From a virus (lineage: Duplodnaviria > Heunggongvirae > Uroviricota > Caudoviricetes), in IMG/VR virus record IMGVR_UViG_2778261457_000006, positions 1 through 24,776 of that record: a stretch of 24,776 bases of DNA; one strand, given 5' to 3'. Each line of letters starts with the position of its first letter. Positions within the stretch are counted from its first letter, which is position 1. Below the pieces are notes generated by a model, which saw only the letters and a list, made by a program, of their open reading frames with translations, was not told the DNA's origin and ran no database searches. Positions 2,626 to 24,776 of this stretch are shown piece by piece. The translations under genes were made by a program, and so were the position numbers.

Positions 2626-2700
2626 GGGTCAGTCGTATAAAGGTCATTACGGAAGGCTGTTAACCTTCTTATCGTGGTTCGAGTCCACGCTGTCCCGCCA
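2626..2700 (+). tRNA. tRNA-like gene, predicted anticodon GTT (Asn), slightly degenerate
   Basis: Hand-folded cloverleaf: acceptor gggtcag/ctgtccc (6 of 7 pairs, one T-T), perfect anticodon stem gaagg/ccttc with loop ctGTTaa, perfect T-stem cgtgg/ccacg with T-loop ttcgagt, discriminator g and encoded CCA 2698-2700. D-stem has only 3 pairs. Confidence 0.55.
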
Positions 2701-2705
2701 AATAT

Positions 2706-2781
2706 GCTGGTTTAGCTCCAATGGTAGAGCAGTCGCCTTGTAAGCGAATGGGTAGCGGTTCAAGTCCGTTAACCAGCACCA
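2706..2781 (+). tRNA. tRNA-Thr (anticodon TGT)
   Basis: Hand-folded cloverleaf: perfect 7-bp acceptor gctggtt/aaccagc, D-stem gctc/gagc with GG in the D-loop, anticodon loop ctTGTaa (U33, A37), T-arm agcgg-ttcaagt-ccgtt, discriminator a and encoded CCA 2779-2781. Confidence 0.75.
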
Positions 2782-3023: not shown

Positions 3024-3347
3024 ATGAAGATGCCAGAAAAACATGACCTGTTAGCCGCCATTCTCGCGGCAAAGGAACAAGGCATCGGGGCAATCCTTGC
3101 GTTTGCAATGGCGTACCTTCGCGGCAGATATAATGGCGGTGCGTTTACAAAAACAGTAATCGACGCAACGATGTGCGCCATTATCGCCTGGTTCATTCGT
3201 GACCTTCTCGACTTCGCCGGACTAAGTAGCAATCTCGCTTATATAACGAGCGTGTTCATCGGCTACATCGGTACTGACTCGATTGGTTCGCTTATCAAAC
3301 GCTTCGCTGCTAAAAAAGCCGGAGTAGAAGATGGTGGAAATCAATAA
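3024..3347 (+). CDS. S: holin S (107 aa) with dual-start motif Met1-Lys2-Met3
   Basis: Translation [34 protein letters not shown]... matches recalled lambda S107/S105. ATG AAG ATG dual start with an upstream cccc..gggg hairpin (sdi-like) at about 3003-3016. Confidence 0.93.
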
Positions 3348-4465: not shown

Positions 4466-5008
4466 ATGAATTATCCAACTATCGTTGACGGCATTGATTT
4501 CAAAGAACTGGTTTTTATTACCAACAATGACCCTGTCACCGATTCATTTATGGTGGCGAAAGCATTTCGTAAGCGACATGACAACGTTGTGCGTGATGTA
4601 GAAAGAACTATCGCTGCTTGTCCTGAAGAGTTTGATACAAAACTCAATTTTGAGGTTTGCTATAAAAACAATGAGTTACAGAATGGTAAGCCACAAAAAT
4701 TCTATCGGCTACGTAAGGATGGGTTGATGCTTTTGGTTATGTCCTACACCAAAAAAGAAGCAATGCGTATCAAAATTGCTTACATCAACGCATTCAACTG
4801 GATGTACGCCATGCTTCAGGTTGGTCATCGTCAATTTGAAGAAGAGAGAAATGCCGTAATGCTGGAGTACATGAAAGAGAAGGATGTTGCCAGCATGTCA
4901 GGCCGCCTGCTTAATCGCTGGGGAAAAATTAAGAAGCCTCAGCTACTGGCGAGAATTGAACGCCTTGAACAGCACGGGCAAACCGTAATCCCCGGACTCA
5001 CCAATTAA
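4466..5008 (+). CDS. rha: Rha-family phage regulatory protein (180 aa)
   Basis: N-terminal ...ELVFITNNDPVTDSFMVAKAFRKRHDNVVRDVE... is the recalled Rha-family signature (F-KRHDNVLRDI). Confidence 0.75.
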   Translation: MNYPTIVDGIDFKELVFITNNDPVTDSFMVAKAFRKRHDNVVRDVERTIAACPEEFDTKLNFEVCYKNNELQNGKPQKFYRLRKDGLMLLVMSYTKKEAMRIKIAYINAFNWMYAMLQVGHRQFEEERNAVMLEYMKEKDVASMSGRLLNRWGKIKKPQLLARIERLEQHGQTVIPGLTN

Positions 5009-5166
5009 CGGCAGTACCACGAAACAACCCAAGCCAGTAAGTGGGGAAATAACACTGGCAGCCACTGAAAGATGAACCTCCAGCCTTATGGCAAAAAAGA
5101 TTCTTTGTGGTGGCGGACTGATGGAAAGACCTCCTAATCAAGCAACCACTCTACAGGGTCATAATT

Positions 5167-5538
5167 ATGAACGACCAGCAAATCGAAAAAGAAATCGTTG
5201 AGAAAGGCAAAACGGCGCCGCGCGTTACGCCAGACCATATCGAAGGCATTATTGCTCAGGAGGCATATTTCACAGCAGAGGATGGTGCCTTTGGCAAAGC
5301 CATAAAAGCGAAACATACTGGCGGAGAGGTAAACTACCAGCCGCACGAATCACTTTCTCTGCTGACGTTCTGCGTCCTGGTGCTGCGCAACGGCTTCACC
5401 GTCACCGGAGAGAGTGCCTGTGCAAGTCCGGAAAATTTTGATGCAGAAATTGGTCGGAAGATTGCCCGGCAGAATGCTGTAAACAAAATCTGGATGCTCG
5501 AAGGTTACTTGCTGAAGCAGAAGCTAAGCGAACAGTAG
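5167..5538 (+). CDS. Gp49-like protein (phage N4 gp49 / Sf6 gp66 family, 123 aa), function unknown
   Basis: Translation contains ...LLTFCVLVLRNGFTVTGESACASPENFDAEIGRKIARQNAVNKIWMLEGYLLKQ..., recalled as characteristic of this family, which often sits upstream of terS. Confidence 0.6.
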   Translation: MNDQQIEKEIVEKGKTAPRVTPDHIEGIIAQEAYFTAEDGAFGKAIKAKHTGGEVNYQPHESLSLLTFCVLVLRNGFTVTGESACASPENFDAEIGRKIARQNAVNKIWMLEGYLLKQKLSEQ

Positions 5539-5641
5539 TTATTACAAAAGCCATTCCCTACAGAGTGGCTTTGATAATGGCTTATACCCTACACGGGATA
5601 ACTTAACTGATATCCCTTTTAACGGATAAACGGAGCCAACA

Positions 5642-5884
5642 ATGGCAGAGATTATTCCCATGACTGAAGAACAGAAATTCAAGTTAGAAATTTACCGACT
5701 GCTATCTAAGAACAATTCAGCGGCAGAGGAAGCTTTTGCATTCATTGGTGCTGACCAGCTGAAACTGGAATTGTTCAAGTTGCACTACAACGATGGTGGT
5801 GCAAATCCAGACTTCACATCTCGCACTATCGAAGCGGTGCGTAAATCGAAGGAAGCGTTAGACCTGTTCACTACCGGAGCATGA
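5642..5884 (+). CDS. hypothetical protein (80 aa)
   Basis: ORF with GGAG about 7 nt upstream of the ATG; no family recognised. Confidence 0.45.
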   Translation: MAEIIPMTEEQKFKLEIYRLLSKNNSAAEEAFAFIGADQLKLELFKLHYNDGGANPDFTSRTIEAVRKSKEALDLFTTGA

Positions 5885-22377: not shown

Positions 22378-23532
22378 TCATGCTTTTCCGTCAATGAAAT
22401 CAGCCCACCACTGCATCATTTCTCTGCGCTTATCCAGATACTGAGCATGGTTGTAAATCCCGCGCACAGATCCACCGTTGGCATGCGCCAGTTGAACCTC
22501 AATCGCGTCAGCAGGCCATTCGTGCTCGTTCATAATCGTGCTGAATTCATGCCTGAATCCGTGTCCGCTTTCCAGACCCTCATATCCGATTTGTTTGATC
22601 ACAAGTAGTACAGCGTTCTCGCAAATTGGCTTCTTCTTATCGTTGCGCCCGGCAAAAACATACTCTGATACTGGTTTAGTGATTGAGCTTAGCGTAGTGA
22701 GAAGTTCAACCACCTGGTCTGACATCGGGACCACATGAATTTTGCGTCCCTTCATCACACTGGCGTCGATGGTGATAATCCTGTTTTCAAAATCGACGTT
22801 CTTCCATTGCATGGAGCGAAGCTCTTTCGTTCTTAGGGCTGTGTAGCGTAAAACTTTGGTCGCAATGAGCGATACGATACTTCCTGAAAATGTTGCCAGT
22901 GCTTTGTTGAATGCAGGGATCTGGTCTGCTGGAAGAAACGGGAAGTTCTTCTTGCGGTATCCTTTCATGGCGTCTGCAAGGTCAGGTGCCGGGTTATATT
23001 TAGCCCTTCCGGTGACAATAGCGTAACGGAAAACCTCGCCGCATCTTCTGCGGGCTTTGTTGGCTCGTTCCATTGCACCGCGATCTTCAAATCTGCGGAT
23101 TACTTCCAGCAGTTGCATCGGCTCAATATCCTGAATCTCAAGACCGCCGATGATGGGTAAAATGTCGTCATCAAACATTTTGGCAAGCTCAGTTGCATAG
23201 CCTACTGACCATACTTGCTTCTTGTGCTCGTACCATTCCTTGTAAATTGCACTAAAGGAATTGTTGTTAGACGAAGCCTTTTTCGCTTTTACCGGATCGA
23301 TGCCAACCGAGATGTCTTTCCTCGCGGTCCATGCTTTATCTCTTGCCTCCTGCAAAGTCATTAGCGGATATTTTCCTACGGTCAGGATTTTCTCCTTACC
23401 GTCAATCTTGTAGCGAAGCTGCCATACCTTTTTCCCTGACACAGGGACATAAAGGTACAGGCCATTACCATCGAGTAGGCGGTATGGTTTTTCTTTCGGC
23501 TTTGCTGCTTCAATCTGCTTAACGGTGAGCAT
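22378..23532 (-). CDS. int: tyrosine integrase, P4 family (about 384 aa from ATG 23532; ORF extends to GTG 23568)
   Basis: N-terminus MLTVKQIEAAKPKEKPYRLLDGNGLYLYVPVSGKKVWQLRYKIDGKEK is the P4-type arm-binding domain. C-terminal ..GHGFRHEF.. and ..LAHANGGSVRGIYNHAQY.. carry the catalytic His/Arg/Tyr region. Resembles my recollection of E. coli K-12 IntS next to argW. Confidence 0.9.
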   Translation of the reverse strand: MLTVKQIEAAKPKEKPYRLLDGNGLYLYVPVSGKKVWQLRYKIDGKEKILTVGKYPLMTLQEARDKAWTARKDISVGIDPVKAKKASSNNNSFSAIYKEWYEHKKQVWSVGYATELAKMFDDDILPIIGGLEIQDIEPMQLLEVIRRFEDRGAMERANKARRRCGEVFRYAIVTGRAKYNPAPDLADAMKGYRKKNFPFLPADQIPAFNKALATFSGSIVSLIATKVLRYTALRTKELRSMQWKNVDFENRIITIDASVMKGRKIHVVPMSDQVVELLTTLSSITKPVSEYVFAGRNDKKKPICENAVLLVIKQIGYEGLESGHGFRHEFSTIMNEHEWPADAIEVQLAHANGGSVRGIYNHAQYLDKRREMMQWWADFIDGKA

Positions 23533-23693
23533 GGGTAAAAATCCGGTGGGTAAAATTATTTTATCCACTTTTTACCCGTCATGGAGTGCGGCTGTCAACG
23601 ATCTGACGCGAACCATTACGAACTGTGAATCTGCGGAAGGCTTGATATTCAGGGAATTTTGCGGACTGGTACGGATGGGAGCGAACTGATAAA

Positions 23694-23768
23694 TGGTGTC
23701 CCCTGCAGGAATCGAACCTGCAATTAGCCCTTAGGAGGGGCTCGTTATATCCATTTAACTAAGAGGAC
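23694..23768 (-). tRNA. argW: tRNA-Arg (anticodon CCT), host argW
   Basis: Reverse complement GTCCTCTTAGTTAAATGGATATAACGAGCCCCTCCTAAGGGCTAATTGCAGGTTCGATTCCTGCAGGGGACACCA folds as a canonical cloverleaf with anticodon loop CTCCTAA. Matches recalled E. coli argW. Confidence 0.9.
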
Positions 23769-23843
23769 AATGCGGCATGAGTATACCCGCTAATGGACTG
23801 CGGGGTAAGTACGCTGCCGCTCGATTGCTTAAACCCTCGCCAT

Positions 23844-24776
23844 TTATGCTGGGTTTTTATCATTTTTCTTAATGTTTTCCGCACGTTCTGCTTTTTGGCG
23901 TGCTTCTGCTTTACGCTTGTTGCTCATGTCGTTACGAATCTGTGCATGACTCATTAACGCGAAGATAAAGGTGCCGCCGCAGATGTTCCCCGCTAAAGTA
24001 GGTAGTGCGAAGGGCCAGATGAAATCGCTCCAGTGCAGCGTGCCGTTAAACACCAGATAGAGGATTTCAACAGAACCGACAACGATGTGGGTGGTGTCAC
24101 CCAGTGCAATAAGCCAGGTCATCAATATAATCACCACAATCTTTGCCGCACCCGCAGCAGGAAACATCCAAACCATAGTGGCGATCAGCCAGCCGGAAAT
24201 GATCGCGTTGGCAAACATCTCGCTGGGGGTGTTCTTCATCACATCCATGCCGATTTTGACAAATGCATCGCGAGTTTCTTCATTGAAGATAGGCATATAT
24301 TCAAATGCCCATGCAGCAATACCTGTCCCGAGAATATTACCCAGCAGCACGACGCCCCATAATCGCATAAGTAAGCCGACGTTGCTCATTGTCGGTTTTT
24401 GCATGACGGGTAGTACCGCAGTCACGGTGTTTTCGGTAAATAATTGCTGGCGGGCCATAATGACGATAATAAAACCAAAGGTATAACCGAGATTCTCCAG
24501 TAAGAAGCTGCCTGGCACTCCTTCCAGTTCGACATGAAATATCCCTTTTGCCAGTAGCGAAGCGCCCATCGACAGACCCGCCGCAATGGCTGACCACAGT
24601 AGCGCCATTGCGTCGCGTTCCAGCTCTTTTTCACCATCCTGGCGGATATGCTCATGAATTGCCATCGCCCGGGAGGGGAGTCGATCTTCATCTATTTCTA
24701 TTTTTTTGCCGCGCTCTTTTTCTTCGCTCTCAACTTCAATTTCGTCGCTGTGTTGATCAATTTTGTCGTTGTCCAT
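23844..24776 (-). CDS. yfdC: inner membrane protein YfdC (formate/nitrite transporter family, 310 aa), host gene
   Basis: Minus-strand ORF ending exactly at the window edge; polytopic membrane protein. Matches recalled E. coli YfdC, which neighbours argW in K-12. Confidence 0.85.
   Translation of the reverse strand: MDNDKIDQHSDEIEVESEEKERGKKIEIDEDRLPSRAMAIHEHIRQDGEKELERDAMALLWSAIAAGLSMGASLLAKGIFHVELEGVPGSFLLENLGYTFGFIIVIMARQQLFTENTVTAVLPVMQKPTMSNVGLLMRLWGVVLLGNILGTGIAAWAFEYMPIFNEETRDAFVKIGMDVMKNTPSEMFANAIISGWLIATMVWMFPAAGAAKIVVIILMTWLIALGDTTHIVVGSVEILYLVFNGTLHWSDFIWPFALPTLAGNICGGTFIFALMSHAQIRNDMSNKRKAEARQKAERAENIKKNDKNPA

Follow-up and report, generated by a model that had tools for sequence, protein, structure and literature searches.

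A tRNA-Asn(GUU)-tRNA-Thr(UGU) cassette of the phage 21 type behind the late leader terminator of a P22-like prophage

Background

Two tandem tRNA genes, a tRNA-Asn(GUU) followed by a tRNA-Thr(UGU), are encoded on the plus strand at the late leader of the prophage that occupies the 24,776 nt of DNA analysed here (the window, meaning this whole stretch). In our best explanation, they are two functional phage tRNA genes and form the tRNA-Asn(GUU)-tRNA-Thr(UGU) cassette of the phage 21/Sf6/HK446 type; we put the probability of this explanation as a whole at roughly 0.6. The best-evidenced role of the tRNA-Thr, judging from published work on a tRNA of identical sequence, would be to replace the host tRNA-Thr(UGU) that is destroyed by the Old protein of phage P2, a role that goes beyond simple codon supplementation. 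In this paper, we present the evidence for the two genes and their setting, compare them with the equivalent site of related phages, and weigh the functions that might be assigned to them.

Results

The two tRNA genes and their identity elements

ARAGORN places the tRNA-Asn(GUU) at 2626-2700 and the tRNA-Thr(UGU) at 2706-2781 of the plus strand, exactly where a preliminary description of this DNA, made from the letters, had noted two tRNA-like sequences. Both are indeed tRNA genes, as the Rfam model RF00005, whose gathering score is 29, gives them 55.3 bits (Asn) and 61.5 bits (Thr); the E-values over the whole window are 1.3e-09 and 2.7e-11, respectively. Both are identical to genes of other phages (phage 21 and HK446 in the case of the tRNA-Thr). 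The only other ARAGORN call in the window is a host tRNA-Arg(CCU) on the minus strand at 23694-23768, and a tRNA-Lys(UUU) was not found by ARAGORN in the whole window.

The tRNA-Asn gene is 75 nt and the tRNA-Thr gene 76 nt in length, and they are separated by the 5-nt spacer AATAT (2701-2705, plus strand). Each encodes its own 3' CCA, which follows G73 in the tRNA-Asn and A73 in the tRNA-Thr. According to the alignments and the sequence, the nucleotides involved in conserved tertiary contacts (U8, G18G19, U33, G53-U54-U55-C56 and A58) are present in both tRNAs, as is a T-loop region of the form GGUUCRAGUCC. The Rfam alignment also contains the two irregularities for which the first gene had been called slightly degenerate, namely a U4.U69 mismatch in the acceptor stem and a D stem of 3 bp, in which U13.U22 is unpaired; in addition, the variable loop of the tRNA-Asn, as read from the sequence, has 4 nt. 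In E. coli, the asparaginyl-tRNA synthetase recognizes G34, U35, U36 and G73, and the threonyl-tRNA synthetase recognizes G1-C72, C2-G71, G35 and U36. The sequences of the two phage tRNAs contain these sets completely.

Position of the cassette in the prophage

A P22-like prophage (Lederbergvirus type) is represented in the window by its right half; over the whole window, its closest phages are IME10, HZ41 and their relatives. A gene for a late antiterminator of the lambda Q type is located at 1728-2351 on the plus strand (Pfam PF03589, Antiterm, E 1.3e-57), and its homologue is annotated as Q in Kapi1. It is followed on the same strand by the late promoter PR' (TTGACT-17-TAAATT, 2394-2422), which lies in a stretch nearly identical to the PR' leader of lambda, and by the intrinsic terminator tR' (2563-2621), which ends the 6S leader RNA, consists of a hairpin and a run of six T, and is identical to that of lambda through the T-run. 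The hairpin (2563-2617) was found by folding (dG -26.9 kcal/mol, z -5.9), as a simple terminator scan missed it owing to its long interrupted stem. The T-run occupies 2616-2621 and the tRNA-Asn gene begins 4 nt past it; hence the two genes do stand directly behind the U-tract of tR', as the preliminary description had it.

The first late protein gene past the cassette is the holin gene S (3024-3347, plus strand), which was taken from the list of open reading frames and is annotated as a holin in HK446, Kapi1 and Sf6. The holin, endolysin and spanin genes that start from 3024 are followed by P22-type head and tail genes, and the tailspike of the prophage has the head-binding domain. The cassette stands at the head of a transcript of more than 20 kb. 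Past the spanin genes and ahead of the gene for the small terminase, three small genes (4466-5884) form accessory cargo within the late operon; they encode a Rha/ORF11CD3 regulatory protein (4466-5008), a protein of the N4 gp49/Sf6 gp66 family (5167-5538) and a DUF2560 protein (5642-5884).

A further hairpin, conserved in lambda, is located between the tRNA-Thr gene and S at 2863-2909 (dG -27.2 kcal/mol, z -3.3) and has a GUUUUG tail. It could halt unmodified polymerase that has passed tR', in which case leak-through would yield the tRNAs but no lysis proteins. One position of its stem varies among the phages (A, G or T) in an uncompensated manner.

The right junction between prophage and host spans 22378-24776 of the window. 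It comprises the integrase gene intS (22378-23568, minus strand), a 17-bp att core of the Kapi1 type, AATGGTGTCCCCTGCAG (23692-23708), the argW gene, and the host formate/nitrite-transporter gene yfdC (23844-24776, minus strand). The argW gene encodes the tRNA-Arg(CCU) mentioned above; it is intact (ARAGORN; 63.4 bits with Rfam), the att core restoring its 3' end, which is also what the authors of the Kapi1 study reported for their phage (PMC8787464).

Comparison with lambda, the Stx phages and other carriers of the cassette

Lambda and the window are nearly identical as far as the T-run of tR', and the near-identity resumes at AACTGAGCCGTAGCC (about 2783 of the window) and extends to S. The slot between these two stretches is filled in lambda by an unrelated segment of about 160 nt; thus the cassette has not been inserted but represents a clean exchange of modules. 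ARAGORN finds no tRNA in this segment of about 160 nt, and its alignment is at random level, so that we rejected the idea that it might be a diverged tRNA. The statement that lambda lacks tRNA genes at this site is thus confirmed by both alignment and ARAGORN, and the fold of the two genes is not spurious, as it would have been if this stretch of the window had turned out to be the tRNA-free sequence of lambda. Equally correct was the statement that Stx phages carry a different set of tRNA genes at the equivalent site, which in 933W is ileZ-argN-argO. As in the window, the tRNA genes of 933W and the Stx phages are found within the PR' leader region, past Q and ahead of the first late genes; however, they differ in their specificities (Ile, Arg and Arg), in having a putative promoter of their own, pT, and extra terminators, and they show no sequence relationship to the cassette.

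All 156 nt of the cassette are matched (100% identity) in HK446, Kapi1, mEp506, HF4s, 720R6 and Bas106; in phage 21, Sf6, SfI, BTP1 and several Salmonella phages the identity is 99.4%, with a single difference that falls in the spacer. The spacer reads AATAT in the window, AACAT in phage 21, Sf6 and BTP1, and GACAT in Oslo, while the two tRNAs themselves (75 + 76 nt) show no difference at all from those of phage 21, Sf6, Kapi1 and BTP1. Around the cassette, 651 nt of HK446, mEp506 and Kapi1 match the window at 97.8-98.6% identity, and the same lambda-type leader and holin are present; Kapi1 also integrates at argW, like the prophage of the window. In Bas106, on the other hand, the match to the window begins only at the cassette. 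The pair of phage 21 (OL657228, 39591-39746) takes the same place past the late leader terminator and before the lysis genes, and apart from the one base in the spacer (T in the window against C) it is the same pair. However, phage 21 combines it with a 21-type Q, QBE and terminator and with the S21 pinholin; in the window, Q, PR', tR' and S are all of the lambda type. Sf6 and BTP1, P22-like phages of Shigella and Salmonella, respectively, carry the identical tRNAs behind a 21-type Q and terminator, and the holin module of BTP1 is unlike that of the window. The cassette may thus follow a Q/terminator unit of either the lambda or the 21 type, and precede lambda S, the S21 pinholin or P22-type holins.

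Annotation of these genes has a considerable history. Both are annotated in Sf6, where the record remarks that they are 'similar to phage 21', and both are annotated directly after the late terminator in the 2022 genome of phage 21; the Kapi1 and BTP1 records likewise list a tRNA-Asn and a tRNA-Thr; the paper on phage L mentions tRNA genes at this location in some P22-like phages, with Asn and Thr in Sf6 (PMC8022706). Furthermore, the cassette is present with PGAP annotation in 369 of 5,426 complete E. coli genomes. From these phage records and genome annotations it follows that the cassette is long known, annotated and widely shared, and that the observation is correct but not new. The HK446 records (NC_019714.1/JQ086372.1, 35097-35252) are without tRNA annotation despite their 100% identical cassette, which explains why a 2026 preprint describes this phage as encoding a 'single' tRNA, that for Thr, and overlooked the Asn gene (10.64898/2026.07.10.737580).

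Conservation of the two genes

The tRNA-Asn is invariant in seven sources (the window, phage 21, Sf6, Kapi1, BTP1, JLK-2012 and L), which span E. coli, Shigella and Salmonella. The more diverged Asn copies of the Klebsiella type (Mulock and 2b LV-2017) carry three compensatory double changes, at 6-67 (A-U to G-C), 7-66 (G-C to A-U) and 28-42 (A-U to C-G), and the tRNA-Thr of the Klebsiella copies has compensatory changes at 3-70 and 6-67. The U4.U69 mismatch is kept in 11 of 12 Asn copies, with U.G in Oslo as the exception, and hence is a feature of this molecule rather than damage. In a comparison of six phages with shared flanks, 3 sites segregate in 151 nt of tRNA versus 32 in 240 nt of downstream non-coding DNA (Fisher p = 8e-5), so that diversity in the tRNAs is about 7 times below that of the flanks. 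As to the host tRNAs, with which a comparison had been suggested, the identity is about 58-63% between the phage tRNA-Asn and asnT and about 72% between the tRNA-Thr and thrU; therefore neither gene is a recent host copy or a fragment of attB.

Two relatives have a departing second gene. In phage L/ST64T (locus L007), the tRNA-Asn is identical, and the gene at 381-452 is a variant of 72 nt that carries the annotation tRNA-Leu(UAA) and has kept the acceptor and T arms of the tRNA-Thr with a rearranged D/anticodon region; ARAGORN makes no call on this 72-nt gene, which may have arisen from the Thr gene by degeneration. In JLK-2012 (L020, 581-656), the tRNA-Thr is a hybrid whose first 26 nt are those of the cassette and which has 19 differences from position 27 on; its 27-31 strand is that of host thrU, its 3' strand is so in part, and three pairs of the anticodon stem are left. 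From this pattern, it would seem that a phage Thr gene has recombined with one of the host type. A tRNA-Gly is located next after this tRNA-Thr.

The same order of specificities in unrelated phages

An Asn-then-Thr order is also found in unrelated phages: Asn-Thr in P7/P1 (L011, 1425-1578), Asn-Ser-Thr in the N4-like phage AlfredRasser (L013, 237-486), Asn-Phe-Thr-Arg in Mulock (L008, 301-620) and Asn-Phe-Thr in Tbat2_3 (L019, 401-635). The P1/P7 tandem shares with the window its order, a very short spacer and a temperate coliphage as carrier, but its identity to the cassette is about 58% (Asn) and 82% (Thr), it is expressed from the C1-controlled ban operon, and the P7 tRNA-Thr, unlike that of the window, keeps both CNG motifs (see below) and a 5-bp anticodon stem. 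The recurring order hints at a common selective pressure on both specificities.

Expression

Between 2200 and 3200, PR' at 2394-2422 is the sole sigma-70-like match on the plus strand, and a separate tRNA promoter comparable to pT of 933W was not found on this strand in that interval. Transcription through tR' is thus the obvious route, and Q-dependent expression is to be expected. RNA polymerase that starts at PR' and passes tR' would transcribe the tRNAs at the head of the late transcript, with a massive output once Q acts and probably a low leak-through before; host RNase P and 3' trimming would then free mature tRNAs that end in the encoded CCA. The RNA-seq study of the BTP1 lysogen sets the two tRNA genes apart from five protein-coding genes at TPM>100, and this wording, which comes with no value, implies a high tRNA signal; the late genes of BTP1 are at TPM 10-20 (PMC7067206). 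The signal could stem from tRNA stability, spontaneous induction or leak-through at the terminator, and consequently the claim that the tRNAs can be transcribed only by Q-mediated read-through is not established: the route from PR' through tR' stands, and the 'only' is too strong.

Codon usage of the late genes

Codons were counted in 19 late genes (6,045 codons) and compared with a host baseline of only 42 K-12 genes. ACA is used at 16.7 per 1000 in the late genes, at 5.4 in the 42 K-12 genes and at 10.1 in the late genes of lambda. The late/host ratio of 3.1 ranks fourth among the 61 codons, and ACA is tied for fourth place by absolute excess. The two Asn codons AAC and AAT together reach 53.1 per 1000 in the late genes versus 37.6 in the same host set, with ratios of 1.27 for AAC and 1.67 for AAT, and the coat gene contains 21 AAC versus 2 AAT. 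On this 42-gene baseline, AGG, AGA and TCA stand above ACA in enrichment, and no phage tRNA serves any of them; likewise, ATA, CGA and GGA are strongly enriched in the late genes without a phage tRNA. The over-use of ACA fits a supply role of the tRNA-Thr(UGU), and would also explain the harm to the phage if thrU is lost. The late cargo had been described as AT-rich, which does not hold, since the window has a GC content of 48.9% and the late genes are not markedly AT-rich.

Discussion

The tRNA-Thr as a proposed replacement for the target of P2 Old

Old is the effector of P2-lambda interference, and it has been shown to kill by excising the anticodon arm of the host tRNA-Thr(UGU), the cuts falling at CNG motifs that pair with each other, nt 28-30 and nt 40-42 (Govande et al. 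2025, PMC12445682). The same study found that the tRNA-Thr of phage 21, named tRNAThr21, is resistant to cleavage and protects against P2-OLD; that for resistance the CNG motif has to be altered and the anticodon stem shortened as well; and that tRNAThr21 has the shorter stem, a C28U/G42A change having been tested in thrU (PMC12445682). Through the genome records of phage 21, the tRNA-Thr of the window can be identified with tRNAThr21, and its sequence is identical to the tRNA-Thr of both phage 21 and HK446. Its anticodon stem has 4 bp with G27.A43 unpaired, in the Rfam alignment as well as in the minimum free energy fold, and U28 pairs with A42, so that positions 28-30 and 40-42 read UCG and CGA, versus CUG and CAG in thrU. 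A CNG motif is therefore present at these positions on both strands of thrU and on neither strand of the phage tRNA, which nevertheless retains the UGU anticodon in a loop of the host type (CUUGUAA). By sequence, the tRNA-Thr of the window bears the published features of Old resistance.

Experiments on the identical tRNA agree with this reading. Expressed from a plasmid, it restores the decoding of ACA and the plating of phage (PMC12445682; 10.64898/2026.07.10.737580), and with the HK446 tRNA-Thr(UGU) OLD-sensitive phages plate at near wild-type levels again (bioRxiv 10.64898/2026.07.10.737580). Over-expression of the E. coli tRNA-Thr(UGU) gives no rescue from Old, whereas the phage versions do (PMC12445682; 10.64898/2026.07.10.737580). 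All these rescue data come from plasmid-expressed tRNA rather than from the native position in the late leader. HK446 also encodes Oad2, a protein inhibitor of Old, and the authors doubt that its tRNA is primarily directed against Old (10.64898/2026.07.10.737580).

In the mechanism that we propose, the phage tRNAs would decode like thrU and asnT, as their anticodon loops are those of the host and the identity elements for the synthetases are retained, and their rewritten anticodon stems would leave them uncut by defence tRNases of the Toprim family, that is, P2 Old and, by inference, enzymes like AriB of PARIS. Once the host tRNAs are destroyed, the phage could thus go on translating its ACA-rich late genes, and the added capacity for decoding ACA and Asn codons would be a side benefit of the same tRNAs. 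This function has been demonstrated elsewhere for a tRNA-Thr of identical sequence, and we infer it for the tRNA-Asn. A point against it is timing: expression past tR' may come too late, as Q, whose gene contains 4 ACA codons, needs to be translated first.

The tRNA-Asn and AriB

AriB has been reported to target Lys(UUU), then Thr(UGU), then Asn(GUU), cutting between positions 40 and 41 in the motif U36AAUC|A41, and a change of U39 abolishes the cleavage of tRNA-Lys; the Thr, Asn and Lys tRNA set of T5 rescues from PARIS (PMC12409363). Positions 36-41 read UAAGCG in the phage tRNA-Thr versus UAAUCA in the host, and UAACCU in the phage tRNA-Asn versus UAAUCC in the host, and thus U39 and position 41 are replaced in both phage tRNAs. 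In addition, both CNG motifs of host asnT are absent from the phage tRNA-Asn, while the anticodon stem of the latter is a full 5 bp. On the grounds of these replacements, the tRNA-Asn may be nuclease-resistant and linked to AriB; our literature search found no paper proposing nuclease resistance for phage tRNA-Asn. The loss of the motifs is not universal, since a Klebsiella copy of the Asn gene and the P7 copy of the Thr gene retain CNG. In the Klebsiella lineage (L008, 301-375; L012, 601-675), a C28-G42 pair restores both CNG motifs of the tRNA-Asn, and in E. coli, Shigella and Salmonella an A28-U42 pair removes them, a split that could reflect host-specific nuclease pressure.

We tentatively suggest, and consider possible but somewhat short of an even chance, that the tRNA-Asn is a second nuclease-resistant replacement, that the pair would form a minimal counter-defence module of temperate enterobacterial phages against Toprim tRNases that rival elements of the P2/P4 type encode (Old and PARIS-like AriB variants) and that hit Thr(UGU) and Asn(GUU), and that leak-through past tR' from PR', a constitutive promoter, would preload the cell with the tRNAs before Q acts. 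Among the hints for such a module we count the loss of CNG and U39 in the tRNA-Asn of the E. coli, Salmonella and Shigella copies and the pairing of Asn with Thr in P7/P1, N4-like phages and T5. The main target of AriB, tRNA-Lys(UUU), has no phage counterpart in the window, and therefore the pair alone should not defeat EcB185 PARIS; phage 21 likewise has only 2 tRNA genes genome-wide (PMC9119081). The nuclease-resistant tRNAs of virulent phages resemble those discussed here in that they retain the anticodon of the host but have changes in the stem close to where Toprim enzymes cut, and in that their Thr(UGU) versions rescue from Old; however, virulent phages have large tRNA arrays, whereas the temperate phage of the window has a minimal two-gene set in the late leader, without Lys. 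A relevance of HepS is not obvious, as a 2026 paper showed that its main substrate is Thr(GGU) and its trigger the tail tip of siphoviruses, whereas the prophage here is a podovirus.

Alternative explanations

The suspicion that the first gene is a decaying pseudo-tRNA or a relic of an att site arose from its acceptor mismatch, its 3-bp D stem and its short variable loop. We regard this as highly improbable, and the preliminary description, which had raised it, is not supported on this point: seven phages have the identical gene, the Klebsiella copies preserve pairing through three compensatory double changes, the U.U mismatch is itself conserved in all but one of the copies compared, diversity is several-fold lower than in the flanks, the wording of the BTP1 study implies that both tRNA genes are transcribed (PMC7067206), and the low identity to asnT speaks against a fragment of the host attB. 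Hardly any more credible is the suggestion, made in the 2026 preprint for HK446, that the tRNAs, as an adaptation to a temperate lifestyle, replace a host tRNA gene damaged by integration. The prophage does integrate into a tRNA gene, but argW is intact and specifies Arg(CCU) rather than Asn or Thr, and on these two grounds we reject such a compensation. A search on the integration of satellites into phage tRNA genes (PMC10111431) found nothing relevant.

The cassette might also serve as punctuation in RNA processing, with RNase P/RNase E signals through which the tR' leader would be cut off and the late mRNA would receive its 5' end and its stability. Its start 4 nt past the T-run, its place at the head of the long late transcript and its recurrence with several lysis modules and two types of Q would all suit this idea, which we nevertheless consider improbable, as lambda and P22 do without the cassette (PMC8022706), as a processing signal would not need strictly conserved anticodon loops, identity elements and CCA, and as the Asn-Thr tandem recurs in P7 and an N4-like phage in other transcriptional contexts. 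More serious, though in our judgement still rather unlikely, is pure codon supplementation, according to which the tRNAs raise the decoding of codons over-used in the late genes, with no evasion of defence. The threefold excess of ACA, the elevated Asn codons and the single-copy state of the host thrU gene are in its favour, and the authors of the phage L study argued likewise for AAC in the coat gene (PMC8022706), where AAC predominates here as well. However, the still more enriched AGG, AGA and TCA have no phage tRNA, and a host copy would suffice for supply, whereas it is specifically in the anticodon stem that the phage tRNAs depart from the host ones; in addition, over-expressed E. coli tRNA-Thr(UGU) fails against Old where the phage versions rescue. 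AAC, moreover, is a preferred host codon and is served by four host genes. In the light of the enriched codons without a tRNA and the ratio of only 1.27 for AAC, we regard codon supply not as the principal explanation but as a secondary benefit that is compatible with it. The codon supplementation suggested in the preliminary description, for which ACA and AAC frequencies were to be compared, thus keeps its basis in the over-use of ACA, with AAC only slightly raised, and the best-evidenced role of the identical tRNA-Thr is the one against Old rather than simple supplementation.

Conclusion

As a discovery, the cassette carries little weight, since dozens of phage records and E. coli genomes by the hundred have it annotated and since the function of its tRNA-Thr has been tested and published. 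What remains of value is the pointer given by the companion tRNA-Asn, in which the loss of the CNG and UAAU motifs should, as a hypothesis drawn from the sequence, confer resistance of the Old or AriB type. In this reading, temperate phages would carry the same kind of tRNA counter-defence as virulent phages of the T4 and T5 type, in a minimal form and at a fixed regulatory position.
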